A stretch of 64,000 bases of DNA. Source: Flavobacteriales bacterium UBA7666 (GTDB lineage Bacteria; Bacteroidota; Bacteroidia; Flavobacteriales_D; Crocinitomicaceae). The notes beneath the pieces were generated by a model. It was not told the DNA's origin, ran no database searches, and saw only the letters and a program-made list of their open reading frames with translations. Below, in pieces: positions 7,398 through 64,000 of the stretch. The position numbers were made by a program, and so were the translations under genes. Position 1 is the stretch's first letter, and every line of letters begins with the position of its first letter. The DNA is taken from contig DLHO01000022.1 in the NCBI GenBank assembly GCA_002483265.1, positions 18,308 to 82,307 of the forward strand. The letters are read 5' to 3'.

Positions 7398-8024
7398 CTA
7401 GACGCTTGTATCAACGTATACCACTGCTTTTGTCTCGAAAAACTCACCGGAAAAAACAGTTTGCAGTGAGTGGATTTTGTAAGGATATTTAACTGGCGAC
7501 ATTTCTTCTTTCAAGTCACCACCTTTCAAGTATAAAATCCCATTTGGTAGCGAATTTTTACTTTCTTTCAAAAATTTTCCTTTTGTCCAGAGTAAAAATG
7601 CAGGCATTGCAGTCACAGCTCTGCTTACTATAAAATCAAATTGTTCTTTGATTTCTTCTGCTCTTGCGTGTGTTGCTCGAACATTTTTTAAGCCCAAAGC
7701 CTGAGTGACTTCATTTACTACCTTGATCTTTTTTCCTATGGAATCTACGAGGTGAAATTGAACGTCAGGAAATAAGATCGCTAATGGAATTCCCGGAAAA
7801 CCACCACCTGTTCCAATATCTAAAACAGAAGAACCGGACGTGAACTCCATGATTTTTGCAATTCCAAGTGAATGCAGTACATGTCGTTCGTAAAATTCGT
7901 CCGTATCCTTTCTGGAAATTACATTAATCTGCGCATTCCAGAATAAATACAATTCCTGCAACTGCTCAAATTGTTTTTTTTGAACGGCTGTTAAATTTGG
8001 AAAGTATTTGAGGATTAGATCCAT
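7398..8024 (-). CDS. rsmG: 16S rRNA m7G527 methyltransferase
   Basis: INVISRKD, HVLHSL, LDIGTGGGFPGIPLA, LVDSIGKKI, SRAV and LYLKG motifs. Confidence 0.97.
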   Translation of the reverse strand: MDLILKYFPNLTAVQKKQFEQLQELYLFWNAQINVISRKDTDEFYERHVLHSLGIAKIMEFTSGSSVLDIGTGGGFPGIPLAILFPDVQFHLVDSIGKKIKVVNEVTQALGLKNVRATHARAEEIKEQFDFIVSRAVTAMPAFLLWTKGKFLKESKNSLPNGILYLKGGDLKEEMSPVKYPYKIHSLQTVFSGEFFETKAVVYVDTSV

Positions 8025-46895: not shown

Positions 46896-48911
46896 CTATT
46901 GAATTCTCATTCTTTGGATTCTAACCGCATTTAAAATCGCCAATAAAGCAACTCCAACGTCTGCAAAAACGGCTTCCCAAAGCGTTGCAATTCCTCCTGC
47001 TCCCAACACTAGAACGATTACTTTTACTCCCATTGCAAGAATGATATTTTGCCAAACAATTTTCTTGGTGATTCGTCCGATTTTTATTGCTCTGACGATT
47101 TTTGAGGGTTCGTCGTTTTGAATCACAATATCTGCTGTTTCAATGGTGGCATCGCTTCCCAAACCACCCATGGCAATTCCTGCATCTGCCAATGCAATTA
47201 CGGGTGCATCGTTCACGCCATCACCCACAAACGCAAGAATCCTGTTTTGGTACTTCAAAGCCTGTACTTTATCCACTTTGTTTTCGGGAAGTAAATCACC
47301 AAAAGCATCGTCAATACCTAGTTTCTTGGCAACCTTATCCACTACACTTTGCTTATCTCCTGAAAGCATAACCGTTTTGATTCCTAAGCTGTGCATTTCG
47401 GTTATTGCCTGTTTTGCATCCTTCTTGATTTCATCTGCGATGGTTATATATCCCGCATATTTTCCATCAATGGCAACTACGACAATGGTATCGACTACTT
47501 TTTCAATTTCGGCAGGATAGTCGATATCGAATTTCTTCAACAATTTCAGGTTTCCAGCCATTACATCTTTTCCACCAATCTTACCTCGTAAGCCATGTCC
47601 TGAAATCTCTTTTACTTTTTCAGCTTCTACACCTTTTATAGCACCACCTGCATAGTCAACTACTGCTGTTGCAATTGGATGAGTTGATTTACTTTCAATG
47701 ATGGCTGTAAGTCTTACGAGTTCTTTTTCGGTTATGCCCTCCGTAACTATCTCCTGAACTTTGAAAACACCTTTGGTGAGGGTTCCCGTTTTGTCCATAA
47801 CAACGGTATTGATCTTCGTCATAACGTCGAGGTAATTAGAGCCTTTGAACAGGATTCCATTTCGTGAAGCCAAGCCAATTCCACCGAAGTAACCGAGCGG
47901 AATCGAAATCACTAAAGCACACGGACAAGAAATAACTAGAAATACCAATGATCGGTAGAGCCATTCTTTAAACTGGTAATCAGAAACGAATAAATACGGA
48001 AGCAAACAAATTGCAATGGCAAGAAAGACCACAATCGGAGTGTAAACCTTCGCAAATTTGGAAATGAATAATTGGGTTGGTGCTTTTCGGCTTGTAGCAT
48101 CCTGAACCATCTCCAATATTTTAGACAATTTACTGTCTTTGAACAAAGCTGTAACCTGAATGTCGGAAACGGAATGAAGGTTAATCATTCCTGCCAATAC
48201 GGTATCGCCTTTGCCTTTCGTATCGGGTTTACTTTCGCCTGTTAATGCAGCAGTATTGAATGAGGCAGATTCGGAAACCAATTTCCCATCCAATGCTACT
48301 TTCTCACCAGATTTCACCTGAATTATTTCATCAATTTGAACTTCTGATGGCGAAACCGTTTTTAACTCTCCTTCTCGCAAAACATTCACCGTATCAGGAC
48401 GAACATCGAGCAATGCTTTAATGCTTCTTTTAGCTCGTGCTACGGCTAATGACTGAAACAATTCTCCAACAGAATAGAACACCATCACGGCAACTCCTTC
48501 GGAATATTCACCGATAAAAAATGCGCCTCCCGTGGCGATTGTCATTAGAAGGAATTCTGAGAAAAAAGCTCCTTTTGCAATGGATTTCACCGCATCAATC
48601 ATCACAGGTAAACCAACTGGAACGTAAGCAACCAAGTACCAAATGAGTTTGATATAACCTTCGAAAAAAGCAGGTTTAAATACTTGTTCGAACAAAATCC
48701 CTGTCAATAACAGCACAAAACTTATTGTTGCAGGAATATATTCCTTCCATGGTGCAGATTCGATTACAATTGCTTCTTTTTTCGGATGAGCCGTTTCATT
48801 ATTTAAATATGGTTCTCCTGTTGAAGCATCTATTTTTTCTTCTAGCGAGCAACACGTCATTCTGCCTTGAGCATCGTAGGTATGGACGTGATTTGGATCT
48901 TTATTAATCAT
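46896..48911 (-). CDS. cadA: Zn/Cd/Pb-exporting P1B-2 ATPase (CadA/ZntA)
   Basis: TGES, SCPCALVIS, DKTGTLT and GDGVNDAP; conserved Lys (GVK) and ADVG in the last TMs; N-terminal CCSLEEKI. Confidence 0.9.
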   Translation of the reverse strand: MINKDPNHVHTYDAQGRMTCCSLEEKIDASTGEPYLNNETAHPKKEAIVIESAPWKEYIPATISFVLLLTGILFEQVFKPAFFEGYIKLIWYLVAYVPVGLPVMIDAVKSIAKGAFFSEFLLMTIATGGAFFIGEYSEGVAVMVFYSVGELFQSLAVARAKRSIKALLDVRPDTVNVLREGELKTVSPSEVQIDEIIQVKSGEKVALDGKLVSESASFNTAALTGESKPDTKGKGDTVLAGMINLHSVSDIQVTALFKDSKLSKILEMVQDATSRKAPTQLFISKFAKVYTPIVVFLAIAICLLPYLFVSDYQFKEWLYRSLVFLVISCPCALVISIPLGYFGGIGLASRNGILFKGSNYLDVMTKINTVVMDKTGTLTKGVFKVQEIVTEGITEKELVRLTAIIESKSTHPIATAVVDYAGGAIKGVEAEKVKEISGHGLRGKIGGKDVMAGNLKLLKKFDIDYPAEIEKVVDTIVVVAIDGKYAGYITIADEIKKDAKQAITEMHSLGIKTVMLSGDKQSVVDKVAKKLGIDDAFGDLLPENKVDKVQALKYQNRILAFVGDGVNDAPVIALADAGIAMGGLGSDATIETADIVIQNDEPSKIVRAIKIGRITKKIVWQNIILAMGVKVIVLVLGAGGIATLWEAVFADVGVALLAILNAVRIQRMRIQ

Positions 48912-49007: not shown

Positions 49008-50234
49008 TTAATGTTCGTGTTCTCCGCCACCTTCGCTTTTCAACAAATGGCTTTGAATGTAGTAAGCGCCTTTCAATACAATTTGCGCATTCGCAGGAAT
49101 ATCTTGTAAGATTGTCACCTGAACATATCCCAATTGGGTAGTTCCTGTCTTTACCTCGATTCGTTGGAAGTGGTAAGTCTTCCCTTCAGTATGTTCATGA
49201 CCTTCTTCTTTTGCATGTTCTTCCAGTACAAAGATAAATTCTCTTCCGTCTGCTTTTACCACCGCATCAACTGGCAAAGCTTTTACATTATTTAAGCCTA
49301 CATCGATCAACGCATTTACATACATTCCCGGAATTAAAATCTGCTTGTCGTTTAGAATATCTGCATGAACCGCAACCGATTTGGTTTCATTTTCAAAGGC
49401 TTTCCCAATGCTAAAAATCTTTCCTTTAATTTCTACATTGTCCTGATTGGTCAGAATGAAGCGAACGGTTTGACCCGTTTTTACTTTTTGAAGGTCTTTC
49501 TCATATACCAATAAATCGACGTGCATTTTCGAATTGTCTACGATAGTGAACATGGGCTTTCCTGGTTCGGCATTCGTTCCAATTTTTACGTTCACTTCCG
49601 TAATGTATCCGCTGATTGGAGCTTTTACCGACATGGTAGAAATTGCACCGCCCGAACCCGACAAATTCAAGGTACTTAACTGTTTCTTCAATGAAGCATT
49701 CCGTGCTTTTTCTGTTTCGTAGTCTGATTTTGCACGTTGCAAGGCTTTCTTAGAATTGACGTTTTCATCATTCAAGGTTTTCTGACGTTCGTATTCGCTT
49801 GTCAGGTATTCCAAGTTGCTTTTAGACGTTAAGTATGCTTCCTGAAGTTTGGTGAATTCCAAGCTTTCGATAACCGCAATGGTTTGTCCTTTCTTCACAA
49901 ACTGACCTTCAATTACATTGATACTGCGCACAACTCCTGTAACAAGAACCGAAACATCTGCTTGGTTCTGCGGAGGGAGTTTTGTGTACCCATTTGCATT
50001 GATTACGGCACTCAAATTTTTCATTTCAAACGTTCCCAGTTCAATGTCTGATGCATTAAATTGAGCCTGATTCAATTCAACCTCTTTGGCGGTGATTGCT
50101 TCGCCTTCATGTTCTTCATGTGCTTCCTCTGTTTTTTCAGGTTCACTTTCACCTCCTGAGTAGGAAATCACACAAACAACCACCACTGTTAAAACAGCTA
50201 CGATTGCTATATATAGAATGTTTTTTCTTTTCAT
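49008..50234 (-). CDS. czcB: RND efflux periplasmic adaptor (CzcB-like)
   Basis: N-terminal anchor, His-rich HEEHEGE, barrel-sandwich hybrid, LIPGMYVNA and C-terminal GGGEHEH. Confidence 0.9.
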   Translation of the reverse strand: MKRKNILYIAIVAVLTVVVVCVISYSGGESEPEKTEEAHEEHEGEAITAKEVELNQAQFNASDIELGTFEMKNLSAVINANGYTKLPPQNQADVSVLVTGVVRSINVIEGQFVKKGQTIAVIESLEFTKLQEAYLTSKSNLEYLTSEYERQKTLNDENVNSKKALQRAKSDYETEKARNASLKKQLSTLNLSGSGGAISTMSVKAPISGYITEVNVKIGTNAEPGKPMFTIVDNSKMHVDLLVYEKDLQKVKTGQTVRFILTNQDNVEIKGKIFSIGKAFENETKSVAVHADILNDKQILIPGMYVNALIDVGLNNVKALPVDAVVKADGREFIFVLEEHAKEEGHEHTEGKTYHFQRIEVKTGTTQLGYVQVTILQDIPANAQIVLKGAYYIQSHLLKSEGGGEHEH

Positions 50235-54603: not shown

Positions 54604-54700
54604 GATGAATAGTCTAATCGTAAAACAATAGTCGGCAAACAAATTGCACGACTGCACAAGACATTCAAAGCCCTGCAACAATTATCTAATAAACGATTAG
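54604..54700 (-). promoter_or_regulatory. Structured leader-czcA intergenic region, putative translational control element
   Basis: 8-bp stem 54693-54700/54614-54621 containing the leader stop codon, plus an internal AGTCG-T-GCAA/TTGC-CGACT hairpin. Confidence 0.45.
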
Positions 54701-55089
54701 CTCAATTTTGGCGGTTGCCAAATAGCGGAATGAAATTCGGAAAATATGGATTGGTAAGGAGGCACAGGTGATTTTTGTACAACTAGCAGATGATCCTGAG
54801 AAATCACTTCCAATGTGGCTTTCTTTTCCAAAACAAATGTCAGAGAAACCAACACATGATCGTGGTTTGTCGGGCAGTTGTCTTGTTCGTGATGCTCCTT
54901 GCTTTTGTGATGACCTTCACTTAAATGCTCACCAACGAAATCTATAAAACTCAATTGGTGATGTTCTTCGTTGTGATGGTTGTAATGCGAAATGAATTTG
55001 GGAATAAAAGAAAAGGCATGAGCTGTTTCTCCGGGAAACATAATCACCAGAATCAGAAACAGTATGCTTGTCTTTTTCAAAAGATTCAT
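54697..55089 (-). CDS. His-rich exported leader-like protein ending IWQPPKLS
   Basis: Hydrophobic N-terminus; HYNHHNEEHH and HHKSKEHHEQDNCPTNHDH; TATCTTCG box upstream supports the start at 55089 (ORF track 55128). Confidence 0.8.
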   Translation of the reverse strand: MNLLKKTSILFLILVIMFPGETAHAFSFIPKFISHYNHHNEEHHQLSFIDFVGEHLSEGHHKSKEHHEQDNCPTNHDHVLVSLTFVLEKKATLEVISQDHLLVVQKSPVPPYQSIFSEFHSAIWQPPKLS

Positions 55090-55159
55090 TGTTAGCGAAG
55101 ATAGTGATTTTTTGATTTGATGAGACACTTGTTATAAAGAAGGGATTGAGTAGGTTTTT

Positions 55160-55207
55160 AATAAAAAGACAACTGCCCACCAATTGGTGGGCAGTTGTCT
55201 TTTTATT
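55160..55207. terminator. 48-bp perfect palindrome, bidirectional terminator-like
   Basis: AATAAAAAGACAACTGCCCACCAA|TTGGTGGGCAGTTGTCTTTTTATT. Confidence 0.8.
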
Positions 55208-57272: not shown

Positions 57273-59492
57273 TCAATACGTAAACGTAAATCCTCCACCA
57301 AACCCCATGTCACTATCATAATGAGCAGATAGAGAAAAAGACTTGTTCAAGACATACTTTAAACCAGCCATATATTCAAAATCCGAATTGTACATCAGCC
57401 CCAAGCGTAAACGCTTCGTTAGGGGAATATCTTCCCGCATCAATTGCAAACGTAATTTTCCATCGGTATCAACCCTTGCATCGGCTATGATGAGCATAGG
57501 CAAAGTGTATTGCAAACCAAAACATATTACCCCACGTTGGTCTTTTGTATTTGTCTGCCCAAACAGATTACGTTCTACTTCGCCCATTTCCATTTTACGA
57601 TACCGCCAGTCAAATCCAACATAAGGGAAGAACCATTGCATTTTTCCGATATATCGACCAAAGTGCGCTTCTGTTTCATAGCCATGCATATCGTTATAAC
57701 CCAATCTCCATTCTGCCTGCAAGTTCCAACGAGTGTTTTGCAACATCATTTCACCGTCATTTCCATTGGTTGCAAAGTCATTTTGAAACATAAAGTGAAA
57801 TTCACGGTCGTCGGCATATAATTTTCTCAGTGCCTTTTTCGGATCGGGCAATTGTGGATTGGGAGGTGAATTCTCGTAGGTAAAAATGCGTCCCATTCCA
57901 CTCATCATGTGATATAGTATGTGACAATGGAAAAACCAATCTCCACTTTCCGTAGCTGCAAATTCAATTGTATCGGTTTCCATAGGCATGATGTCCAATA
58001 CATTCTTCAATGGAGAATACTCACCATTACCGTTAACGATGCGGAAGAAATGTCCGTGCAGGTGCATCGGGTGGCGCATCATCGAATTATTGTAGAGGAT
58101 CATCCGCACATTCTCACCTTTCTTTATCAGTATTTTATCCGTTTCGGAAACCGTTTTGTTGTTAATACTCCAAACATAACGGTTCATATTCCCAGTGAGC
58201 TCAAAATTGTATGTGGTTGTGGGGACATTAGGCAAAGTAGTCTTTACAGGCGAACGGAGCATATTGTAATTCAATGTTACAATTTCTGAAAGCTGATTAC
58301 TCTTATACTGACTGCCATCGGTCATATTCATGTGCTTCATCTTCTGCTTTTTCTTTTTCTTCGAGCCAGTAATTTCAGGATACATCACCACATTCATGTC
58401 CATTTGTTGAAGGCTCATATTCATGCCCATATCGTCCAGATTCCCATCCATCTTAATCATGTCGTTCATCATTTGCATACCTTCAAAATACTTCAATGGT
58501 TCTAATGGTGAGATCAATTGCTTAACACCCTTTCCGAGCCATAGTGACGTGCTTCTTATTCTGTCTTCGGAAGTTGCTTGTAGTTCGAAGGAAGTGTTAT
58601 CCGAAGGAATGGTTATAATCACATCATAGGTTTCTGCCACAGCAATGATAAAGCGGTCAACTTCCACTGGAACAACATCCATTCCGTCACTTGCTATAAC
58701 GCTCATTTTACCCCCTGAATAGCGCATCCAAAAATAGGATGACGAACCACCGTTGATGATTCTTATTCGAACTTTATCACCAGCTTTGAAGAGTGGTGCA
58801 TTATCATCTAATTTACCATTAGTAAGAAGCTTATCATAGTACACATCGCTCACATCCATGGCGAGCATTCGCTTCCATTCGTTTCCAAATTTTGTTTTAA
58901 GACTTCCTGCTCCAATTGCATCGGCATAACTTTGAACCGCACCTTTTTGAAGATTAGCTTTTTTGATTGCTGACCAGTCATTAGCCATGTGCAATCTCCG
59001 GTGCACCTCAAATGGTTTCATGTCTGTCCAATCACTTAAAACAACCGTATATTCAAGCATTTTGGGTTCATCTCTTTTGTGAATAATAAACGCCCCATAC
59101 ATACCACCCTGTTCCTGCAAGCCCGTATGTGAGTGATACCAATAGGTTCCGTTTTGAACGATCGGAAATTTGTACAAATGAGTTGTTCCTGCTTTAATTG
59201 GTGCTGTTGTCAGATAGGGTACGCCGTCTTGTTCATTTGGTAAGATGATTCCGTGCCAATGGATGGAAGTTTCTGTTTTCAACTCATTGTGTACCCATAT
59301 TTCAGCAGTGTCTCCTTCCGTAAATTGCAATTCAGGCATTGGAATACTTCCGTTAACGGAGTAAGCATGTCGCTCTTTCCCCGTGAAATTAACAGTGGTA
59401 TCCCTGACGTATAGATCGTATCGCACCGTTTTTTGGGCAAAAGTTGCCAAGTGCATCAATACCGCCACTATCATTAACATTCGTTTTTTCAT
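57273..59492 (-). CDS. Multicopper oxidase with a C-terminal beta-barrel-like (CopB/PcoB-like) domain
   Basis: IHWHG, YWYHSH, HPMHLHGH and HCHILYHM copper motifs; Met-rich insert; barrel-like C-terminus. ORF track starts at 59501. Confidence 0.92.
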   Translation of the reverse strand: MKKRMLMIVAVLMHLATFAQKTVRYDLYVRDTTVNFTGKERHAYSVNGSIPMPELQFTEGDTAEIWVHNELKTETSIHWHGIILPNEQDGVPYLTTAPIKAGTTHLYKFPIVQNGTYWYHSHTGLQEQGGMYGAFIIHKRDEPKMLEYTVVLSDWTDMKPFEVHRRLHMANDWSAIKKANLQKGAVQSYADAIGAGSLKTKFGNEWKRMLAMDVSDVYYDKLLTNGKLDDNAPLFKAGDKVRIRIINGGSSSYFWMRYSGGKMSVIASDGMDVVPVEVDRFIIAVAETYDVIITIPSDNTSFELQATSEDRIRSTSLWLGKGVKQLISPLEPLKYFEGMQMMNDMIKMDGNLDDMGMNMSLQQMDMNVVMYPEITGSKKKKKQKMKHMNMTDGSQYKSNQLSEIVTLNYNMLRSPVKTTLPNVPTTTYNFELTGNMNRYVWSINNKTVSETDKILIKKGENVRMILYNNSMMRHPMHLHGHFFRIVNGNGEYSPLKNVLDIMPMETDTIEFAATESGDWFFHCHILYHMMSGMGRIFTYENSPPNPQLPDPKKALRKLYADDREFHFMFQNDFATNGNDGEMMLQNTRWNLQAEWRLGYNDMHGYETEAHFGRYIGKMQWFFPYVGFDWRYRKMEMGEVERNLFGQTNTKDQRGVICFGLQYTLPMLIIADARVDTDGKLRLQLMREDIPLTKRLRLGLMYNSDFEYMAGLKYVLNKSFSLSAHYDSDMGFGGGFTFTY

Positions 59493-63858: not shown

Positions 63859-64000
63859 CTATATTAGGAATGAATCGTTCTGTATGTAGATCGGTTCTTT
63901 GTACCTACCAGGTGGTAGATCTGGAGAGTAGCTTAGCGCCACTTTAGGTGTTACAATAATCGTATTTCGAATGAAACCGAAATCGAATTGTTTTTCTGCT
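63859..64000 (-). CDS. C-terminus of a HYC_CC_PP-like protein, start outside the window
   Basis: Translated by hand: ...AEKQFDFGFIRNTIIVTPKVALSYSPDLPPGRYKEPIYIQNDSFLI*. The PP...IY....FLI ending resembles this Bacteroidota family; the N-terminal motifs are not visible. Confidence 0.65.
   Translation of the reverse strand, partial: AEKQFDFGFIRNTIIVTPKVALSYSPDLPPGRYKEPIYIQNDSFLI

Follow-up and report, generated by a model that had tools for sequence, protein, structure and literature searches.

Heavy-metal efflux pumps of the resistance-nodulation-division (RND) type are usually described as being under the control of two-component systems or of MerR/ArsR regulators. The czc operon considered here lies in a 64,000-nt stretch of contig DLHO01000022.1 of Flavobacteriales bacterium UBA7666, hereafter the window, and has no two-component or MerR/ArsR regulator beside it. 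Its pump gene, czcA, is preceded on the same strand by a small open reading frame (ORF) of 130 codons, and the question raised by this locus is what the small ORF, here called the leader, does for the pump. The original prediction, made from the letters of the sequence, was a metal-sensing leader peptide that arrests its own ribosome and so controls czcA. Comparison with relatives of the locus supports an arrest-type leader through the C-terminal motif, the histidines, their spacing, the predicted disorder of the chain, the czcA synteny, and an RNA stem. On the strength of sequence comparison, synteny, and covariation, the leader is probably a cis-acting sensor of the CutF type, that is, the first cistron of the czc operon, translated for its action in cis rather than for a stable protein.

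The leader (full translation, MNLLKKTSILFLILVIMFPGETAHAFSFIPKFISHYNHHNEEHHQLSFIDFVGEHLSEGHHKSKEHHEQDNCPTNHDHVLVSLTFVLEKKATLEVISQDHLLVVQKSPVPPYQSIFSEFHSAIWQPPKLS) carries all of the features on which the original prediction was built, namely a length of 130 residues, an export signal, a histidine-rich segment, the C-terminus IWQPPKLS, and the two proline codons within it, each where it had been placed (Table 1; coordinates are those of the window, and the leader, the spacer, and czcA are all on the minus strand). Judged by eye, the N-terminus, MNLLKKTS-ILFLILVIMFPG-ETAHA/FSF (the slash marks the predicted cleavage), shows a basic n-region followed by a hydrophobic core and an AxA site, and this pattern is kept in an alignment of the close relatives. 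The histidine-rich part reads HYNHHNEEHH...EGHHKSKEHHEQDNCPTNHDH. Three codons (K, L, and S) separate the two prolines from the stop codon. An AlphaFold2 model built from a 33-sequence alignment has confident helices at residues 3–17, 19–42, and 48–56, with a predicted local distance difference test score (pLDDT) of about 90, and a pLDDT below 50 over residues 59–130; the C-terminal 70 or so residues are therefore predicted to be disordered, with no sign of a folded domain. A longer reading of 143 residues initiated at a GTG was ruled out by the homologue alignments.

A word-indexed search returned 34 close homologues of the leader, and an exhaustive HMMER search gave a family of 188 representative clusters at E ≤ 0.001, nearly all of them 120–135 residues long (median 130) and aligned from end to end. 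Across an alignment of 182 members, a single residue exceeds 90% only at H35, H39, F51, H55, P73, and I123-W124-Q125-P126-P127, and the three histidines reach 98–99%. The mean frequency of the top residue is 0.91 in IWQPPK, 0.49 in the histidine block, and 0.20 in the linker (residues 79–109). The 182 aligned relatives keep [IV]WQPP[KR], and of 162 members, 118 have three residues after the prolines and 29 have two. The distance from HYxxH to the first proline is also constrained, with a median of 91 residues and a 5–95% range of 88–96 that holds even at less than 25% identity. The single cysteine of the leader, C72, is kept in the close subfamily only, and distant members have LPF at that place. 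In 27 dereplicated loci the codons for the Ile, the Gln, and both Pro of the motif vary synonymously, which argues that selection acts on the peptide. A profile search found the family in 60 of 301 evenly drawn Bacteroidota genomes, representing 40 of 144 genera. The nearest loci are those of Fluviicola and other Crocinitomicaceae, and a second full copy of the leader stands in the same genome, on contig C6, before a second czcA-czcC-czcB set.

Some members of the family depart from this pattern. On contig C6, a divergent third member at 57972–58313 (plus strand), with a start that is probably not ATG, ends in LFRPPCLV and sits about 100 nt before the gene of an 801-residue secreted protein other than czcA. 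Five shorter relatives (L024, L046, L047, L050, and L051) have the C-terminal half only, from about residue 55 to residue 130, ending IWQPPKI..; they precede genes for signal-peptide proteins of approximately 730 residues that resemble TonB-dependent receptors, and their spacers form local hairpins that include the stop codon and no long-range stem. Three records carry titles outside the Bacteroidota, namely L004 (CP034120.1, a Glaciecola amylolytica chromosome), L020 (an uncultured Rhizobium metagenome-assembled genome), and L040 (an uncultured Akkermansia metagenome-assembled genome). The L004 leader is 73–75% identical, those of L020 and L040 clearly belong to the family, and the L004 flanks are nearly identical to those of a Fluviicola metagenome-assembled genome (L003); these records look like cases of mislabeling or misbinning and not of horizontal transfer.

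The leader is related to no catalogued family that was searched. It has no Pfam or NCBIfam match at E ≤ 1, ten of its distant relatives have no Pfam match at E ≤ 0.01, and the homologues likewise gave no Pfam or NCBIfam family. No relative came from a PDB sequence search or from Foldseek run with the AlphaFold2 model. Literature searches for IWQPP and WQPPK yielded only unrelated fibronectin peptides and no arrest context.

The position of the leader in the operon is as regular as its C-terminus. A strong terminator with a 20-bp hairpin (55162–55205) closes the gene upstream, and because it separates that gene from the leader, the czc transcription unit begins with the leader ORF as its first cistron. 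The czcA ATG (54603–54601) follows 93 nt 3' of the leader, and the N-terminus that it implies, MLDKVIQFSIKNK, is backed by the relatives; a version extended to an upstream TTG was ruled out by homologue alignments. Of the 47 evaluable loci in the close-alignment set, about 40 have czcA directly after the leader, at gaps of 53–207 nt (mostly 53–104) and with a CzcA N-terminus of the form MLDK/MLNK...FSIKNK, and a gene for a signal-peptide protein of approximately 730 residues takes its place in six. The genome survey supplied a second, more distant set of 20 loci, of which at least 14 have czcA next by pattern and another three on inspection by eye. Some family members stand before other genes, those of receptor-like secreted proteins among them, and this favors a portable regulatory module and disfavors a subunit specific to CzcA.

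One Crocinitomicaceae subgroup (L012, L014, L015, and L018–L021) has an in-frame ATG 57–63 nt 5' of the canonical czcA start. From there, about 20 extra residues (MHMIKLSCCK.../MFIKSWCGM...) would be translated out of the spacer; the codon may be an alternative start or a chance occurrence.

The spacer between the leader and czcA contains the second main element of the locus, a stem that joins the stop codon of the leader to the initiation region of czcA. The stem of the original prediction, 8 bp long with the stop codon in its 5' arm and its 3' arm 11–18 nt before the czcA ATG, is correct in its coordinates: CUAAUCGU (54700–54693) pairs with ACGAUUAG (54621–54614). In the minimum-energy fold it is lengthened to 10 bp with one bulge (54702–54693 with 54621–54611) and encloses a loop with a second helix and two hairpins. 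Pairing of the stop region with the 35 nt that precede the start has a duplex energy of -10.6 kcal/mol. With Pro126 or Pro127 in the P site, and the leading edge of the ribosome taken as about 15 nt past the first P-site base, that edge would lie at about 54699–54696. A ribosome paused at the prolines had been expected to cover the 5' arm; the expectation holds for two to five of the eight core bases and fails for the arm as a whole. In many relatives, the 5' arm begins at the Lys codon and would be wholly covered by such a ribosome. A riboswitch or other known RNA in the spacer was ruled out by an Rfam search, which gave no match in 54604–54696 even at E ≤ 1; all of its weak matches fell on the terminator hairpin at 55162–55205.

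The case for the stem is made by the relatives. In almost every czcA-linked locus, the minimum-energy fold has a closing stem with the leader stop codon in its 5' arm, which often also takes in the last one to three codons of the leader, and a 3' arm that ends about 5–20 nt before the czcA AUG. The arms are wholly different in sequence between lineages (CUAAUCGU/ACGAUUAG, UUAAUCAC/GUGAUUAA, UUAAUACA/UGUAUUAA, UUAGUUAAAUGAC/GUCAUUUAACUAA, AUAUAAUUUUUGAUUUU/AAAAUCAAAAAUUAUAU, and CCUUUCCUGA/..CAGGAAAG), and the partner tracks the stop codon, UAA being paired with UUA, UGA with UCA, and UAG with CUA. An alignment-free test, in which partners were permuted across loci, gave a mean duplex energy of -10.85 kcal/mol for the native pairs of 27 dereplicated loci against -5.77 kcal/mol for cross-locus pairs, and none of 20,000 permutations reached the native mean. 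The independent distant set of 14 loci gave -8.74 against -6.06 kcal/mol (2 of 20,000 permutations). In a MAFFT alignment of 12 closer sequences, 87% of the cells of the named 8-bp stem are paired; sliding the 3' partner leaves 51% or fewer paired, and in three of the pairs both sides change. RNAalifold reported no consensus structure for the MAFFT alignment of these 12 spacers because the spacer interiors do not align. Conservation of the stem was something on which the original prediction had staked itself, and the stem does recur in distant relatives with differing, compensating arms; judged from these comparisons, the stem between the stop codon and the region before the start is conserved by compensatory change. 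When a ribosome is placed at the prolines in a partition-function model that forbids pairing inside its footprint, the mean probability that czcA positions -20 to -4 are unpaired goes up from 0.40 to 0.52 (28 loci, paired test p = 0.001).

Table 1. Features of the leader-czc locus, with positions in the 64,000-nt window.
Feature	Position	Strand	Remark
Predicted Bacteroidota -7 promoter box, TATCTTCG	55096..55103	minus	one mismatch to TAnnTTTG
Leader ORF, 130 aa	54697..55089 (including stop)	minus	ATG at 55089, TAA at 54699-54697; HYxxH ... IWQPP[KR]xx-stop family, uncurated, Bacteroidota
Predicted Sec signal peptide, residues 1-25, MNLLKKTSILFLILVIMFPGETAHA	55015..55089	minus	cleavage after AHA; by eye
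Putative metal-sensing block, residues 35-55, HYNHHNEEHHQLSFIDFVGEH	54925..54987	minus	H35, H39, and H55 conserved family-wide
Second conserved block, residues 66-78, HHEQDNCPTNHDH	54856..54894	minus	P73 invariant
IWQPPK, proposed arrest motif, residues 123-128	54706..54723	minus	PP codons 54714-54709
5' arm of closing stem, AGCUAAUCGU	54693..54702	minus	contains leader stop UAA 54699-54697
Spacer interior: second helix, hairpin 1, and hairpin 2	54623..54687	minus	minimum-energy fold
3' arm of closing stem, ACGAUUAG-A-CU	54611..54621	minus	8-18 nt 5' of czcA start codon, in initiation region
czcA, RND pump for heavy metals with in-frame fusion to czcC/TolC-like outer-membrane factor, 1452 aa	50245..54603	minus	TIGR00914
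czcB, periplasmic adaptor, same operon	49008..50234	minus	TIGR01730, TIGR00999
Zn/Cd-type P1B ATPase, downstream	46896..48911	minus	TIGR01525, TIGR01512; context for metals involved

The start of the transcript bears on how the leader would be translated. The predicted -7 box ends 6 nt before the leader ATG, and TAnnTTT[G/A] stands at -12 to -14 from that ATG in about 17 of the 22 relatives with a credible start (among L002–L048). Flavobacterium johnsoniae has the G of the -7 box at -5 relative to the start of transcription, and leaders of more than 10 nt are found on 87% of its transcripts (PMC6847099). The position of the box, taken with the F. johnsoniae spacing, therefore predicts transcription to start 0–2 nt before the leader AUG, and the transcript would be leaderless or nearly so, which would be unusual for the phylum.

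From these features, we infer a leader that is exported, binds metal, stalls its own ribosome, and regulates in a given direction from a leaderless start. The predicted operon promoter abuts the leader ORF, and translation would begin from the very 5' end of the transcript; the signal peptide would direct the nascent chain into the Sec translocon. With the ribosome at W124-Q125-P126-P127, about 127 residues would have been made, and the H35/H39/H55 block would be about 70–90 residues from the peptidyl-transferase center. The exit tunnel would hold 30–40 residues and the translocon 20–30, so that residues up to about 60, the histidine block among them, would be outside the membrane, the variable linker would lie in the conduit, and the conserved last 6–19 residues in the tunnel. 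This placement of the nascent chain is reasoned from established dimensions. A peptide bond between two prolines is intrinsically slow to form, and the invariant I-W-Q context in the tunnel would make the pause respond to a pulling force on the chain. Zn, Cd, Co, or Ni bound to the exposed histidine block would alter the folding or translocation of the chain and thereby the length of the pause. By analogy with CutF, from which the direction is borrowed, metal would prolong the stall and the pump would be switched on. A ribosome held at the prolines, or at the stop codon three codons later, would occupy or unwind the 5' arm of the stem, and the opened stem would free the bases 8–18 nt before the czcA AUG, whereupon czcA-czcC, and thereby the pump, would be translated. 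Initiation in Bacteroidota is independent of the Shine-Dalgarno sequence and tuned by mRNA structure (PMC6847099, PMC7797042). Opening of the stem would permit translation of czcA because Bacteroidota ribosomes ignore the Shine-Dalgarno sequence and need an unstructured initiation region.

The closest precedent is CutF of Rhodobacter capsulatus, which is absent from the original prediction. Classed as DUF2946 and shorter than 150 residues, CutF carries a signal peptide and a CxxxC motif, has PPP near its C-terminus, and must be translated in cis (PMC9973294). [quoted passage not shown] Both CutF and the leader are small and combine a Sec signal peptide, an exported metal motif, and a proline motif near the C-terminus (export and metal binding being predicted for the leader). 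Both are the first gene of a metal-detoxification operon (cutFOG in the case of CutF), with a short spacer in which a stem-loop hides the next initiation region. CutF acts only in cis, with metal prolonging the stall and turning on the next gene, and the same is proposed for the leader by analogy. The two differ in that no sequence or profile similarity was detected between them. The sensor of the leader would be three histidines (H-x3-H ... H), whereas that of CutF is a CxxxC motif with disulfides; the proline motifs are IWQPP[KR] and PPP, respectively; and the targets are a divalent-cation RND pump and a multicopper oxidase. Unlike in CutF, the stem of the leader includes its own stop codon and hides an initiation region that has no Shine-Dalgarno sequence, and the transcript is probably leaderless.

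A rule-based definition of "CutF-like" proteins (Ozturk et al. 2023, PMC9973294) also describes the leader, which at 130 residues is under the limit of 150, has its prolines at residues 126–127 of 130 and so within the last 15, has czcA 93 nt downstream on the same strand where a neighbor within 1000 nt is asked for, and has a predicted signal peptide, with conserved n-, h-, and c-regions and an AHA/F site recognized by eye. CutF-like proteins are frequent in Bacteroidota, with ACR_tran (CzcA/CusA) genes among their commonest neighbors, and the His-only CutF-like clusters are linked to HupE/UreJ and not to RND pumps (PMC9973294). CutF-like leaders beside RND pumps in Bacteroidota were thus already predicted in 2023, and the idea is less new than the original prediction implied.

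That prediction had pointed, among others, to CruR of Bordetella pertussis (bp2923, DUF2946), in which a RAPP motif stands three residues short of the C-terminus and copper relieves the stall, whereupon Rho terminates transcription (PMC9426467). CruR, too, is encoded by an upstream ORF, carries a signal peptide as well as a metal motif, is poorly structured, heads a metal-homeostasis operon, and depends on the spacing between its motifs (PMC9426467). It differs from the leader in its CXXC and RAPP motifs, in Rho-dependent termination within a 162-nt unstructured region, in copper relieving the stall to turn off an uptake receptor, in a signal peptide that is dispensable, and in having no detectable homology to the leader. 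By sequence, the parallel does not extend to family kinship. Membership in DUF2946 was ruled out by hmmscan, by a six-frame search of the whole genome with PF11162 (cut-off 23.7 bits) that gave no match at E ≤ 10, and by hhalign against six Bacteroidota DUF2946-like ORFs, which end in RAPP or RGPP and carry CxxC; this last comparison gave a probability of 3.7%, from similarity of the signal peptides only. No CXXC or CxxxC motif is conserved in the leader family. The two prolines stand near the stop codon as in the DUF2946 leaders, but the motif is IWQPP[KR], and not RAPP or PPP.

The HYC_CC_PP family (NF047658, cut-off 28 bits) was also rejected, with no NCBIfam match at E ≤ 1 and a profile probability of 24% that reflects similarity of the signal peptides only; as a positive control, the neighboring ORF ending at 63859 scores 57.9 bits against the same model. 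That ORF (63859–64000, minus strand, running off the window end) is a 139-residue HYC_CC_PP member, MRMKRILS...THYCGGK...KCCEQ...LPPGRYKEPIYIQNDSFLI, with two prolines 16 residues before its stop codon. It stands just upstream of a gene for a 282-residue lipoprotein in the copper part of the island and may be a second, Cys-based leader-like gene. On contig C18, at about 7465–7797 (plus strand), a 110-residue ORF has a signal peptide, CAFC and CC, and the C-terminus LRGPPMSDLL, a motif of the RAPP/RGPP type known from DUF2946/CruR; it falls below the Pfam threshold for DUF2946 and lies 60 nt before the gene of a 776-residue receptor-like secreted protein. HYC_CC_PP and DUF2946-like ORFs resemble the leader in size, signal peptide, and late prolines, and occur in the same genomes and metal islands, but unlike the leader they are Cys-based. 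Taken together, the IWQPPK, HYC_CC_PP, and RGPP ORFs mean that the genome holds at least three kinds of leader-like ORFs that end in two prolines.

The secretion monitors SecM, VemP, and MifM and the RAPP-type ApdA/ApdP are exported nascent chains with C-terminal arrest and relief by pulling force, and they free a downstream initiation region. The logic is the same as that proposed for the leader; the difference is that these peptides monitor the capacity for secretion or insertion and not a ligand, and that their arrest sequences are others. The leader shares with arrest peptides a motif conserved as peptide, a fixed distance from the two prolines to the stop codon, and a stop codon inside a conserved stem.

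The same features could in part belong to a small accessory protein that binds metal, is periplasmic or anchored in the membrane, resembles CzcI or a metallochaperone, and is made in a fixed proportion to the pump; the stem would then be ordinary coupling and IWQPPK a contact or sorting motif. CzcI of Cupriavidus metallidurans is itself small and exported, its gene lies directly before czcCBA, and a role as a metal sensor is proposed for it, though it has no C-terminal proline motif (PMC9973294), and no Pfam or NCBIfam model links it to the leader. A signal peptide followed by a conserved three-histidine site in confidently predicted helices, and the place of the leader ORF at the head of the operon, would suit such a protein, and the stem at the stop codon suits simple translational coupling equally well. 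The most conserved element, however, is not the metal site but the pair of prolines at a fixed distance from the stop codon, and it is preceded by a stretch, within the 70 C-terminal residues predicted to be disordered, that varies in sequence and is fixed in length. Searches of PDB, Foldseek, Pfam, and NCBIfam found no structural or sequence relative, members of the family precede unrelated genes, and CutF and CruR, its analogues, escape detection as proteins or are unstable, and work in cis alone. We consider an accessory protein unlikely.

Control of transcription, as in CruR, would instead make the leading ribosome at WQPP decide whether RNA polymerase stops at a hairpin with a U run or is halted by Rho, with the closing stem in a secondary role. 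The spacer does contain a candidate. In the minimum-energy fold, AGAUAAU (54687–54681) pairs with AUUGUUU (54629–54623) to form the second helix, which is followed within the loop by hairpin 1 (54676–54656) and hairpin 2 (54653–54630, -10 kcal/mol); the latter is terminator-like, with AGUCGUGCAAUUUGUUUGCCGACU leading into the U-rich run AUUGUUUU (54653–54622). A hairpin with a U run is present in 13 of 27 loci, compared with 2.0 expected from shuffles, and always ends 24–32 nt before the czcA ATG; that CruR itself uses Rho-dependent termination (PMC9426467) is a further point in favor. But the hairpin is missing from half of the loci and is less well conserved than the closing stem, and a terminator scan called none inside the spacer between the leader and czcA. 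By prediction, the U run also forms the 3' strand of the second helix, which extends the closing stem by pairing with the A-rich stretch after the stop codon, and its U-richness may perhaps be structural. About 40 nt would still separate the hairpin from the edge of a ribosome stalled at the prolines, and no competing pairing that could serve as an antiterminator was identified. As the principal mechanism, attenuation appears rather improbable.

Several points weigh against the cis-acting sensor leader that we prefer. In this single sequence the stem is not beyond chance: the 151-nt fold has a z-score of -1.16, with 25 of 200 shuffles folding at least as well, and the duplex energy of -10.6 kcal/mol lies at the 9.5th percentile of 379 same-strand gene pairs with 50–110 nt gaps in the same genome (mean -6.5, standard deviation 2.7 kcal/mol), so that the case rests on the relatives. 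Five relatives (L030, L038, L039, L072, and L073) have no clear stem. The modeled gain in accessibility is real but modest. A plain ribosome terminating at the stop codon would also open the stem, and coupling would explain the RNA structure without arrest. The terminator-like hairpin in half of the loci may mean that transcription attenuation contributes as a second layer of control. Two prolines with a Lys after them are not known to rank with the strongest stallers that depend on elongation factor P. The signal peptide of the leader was judged by eye, and the direction of metal control is borrowed from CutF while CruR works the opposite way. That the locus holds nothing regulatory, only a chance inverted repeat beside a hypothetical ORF, would agree with how unremarkable the stem is in this sequence, and is nevertheless hardly credible given that the ORF family, the motif, the spacing, the synteny, and the stem are all conserved far beyond chance.

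CzcA matches the CusA/CzcA family TIGR00914 with 1235 bits over residues 1–1031, and the remainder of the protein is the outer-membrane-factor domain. The paralogous operon on contig C6 has the same czcA-czcC fusion, of 1453 residues. An inner-membrane pump joined to an outer-membrane channel calls for an explanation, for example cleavage at an internal signal peptide.

The principle of a metal-sensing nascent chain is known from CutF and CruR; what appears to be new here is the family, the motif, the putative histidine sensor, the stop-codon stem, and the Shine-Dalgarno-blind setting. In its fullest form, which we advance tentatively and at somewhat less than even confidence, the proposal is that IWQPP[KR] marks an independent Bacteroidota family, unrelated to DUF2946 and present in about 20% of sampled genomes (40 of 144 genera), of nascent-chain metal sensors that work across the envelope. 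How long the ribosome dwells on a new arrest motif would be set by a three-histidine site outside the membrane; once stalled, the ribosome would open a stem that contains its own stop codon, and this would license the mRNA of an RND pump that lacks a Shine-Dalgarno sequence, with the sensor translated from a leaderless transcript.

If the leader does work in this way, a large share of the Bacteroidota would sense periplasmic Zn, Cd, or Co by a nascent peptide, with no dedicated regulator protein, in a phylum whose ribosomes ignore the Shine-Dalgarno sequence. In the fullest form of the proposal, the leader would be the first arrest-peptide system in Bacteroidota and the first for efflux of the Zn/Cd/Co RND type, it would have arisen by convergent evolution with CutF and CruR, and it would widen the principle of those systems from copper and cysteine to histidine and divalent cations. 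IWQPP[KR] would offer a sharply defined candidate arrest motif for structural work on the ribosome, and the family a natural test of how a pulling force or ligand signal may be transmitted across a membrane to the peptidyl-transferase center. For annotation, a rule calling ORFs of 125–135 residues that end in WQPP[KR]xx before czcA would give meaning to hundreds of small hypothetical genes.

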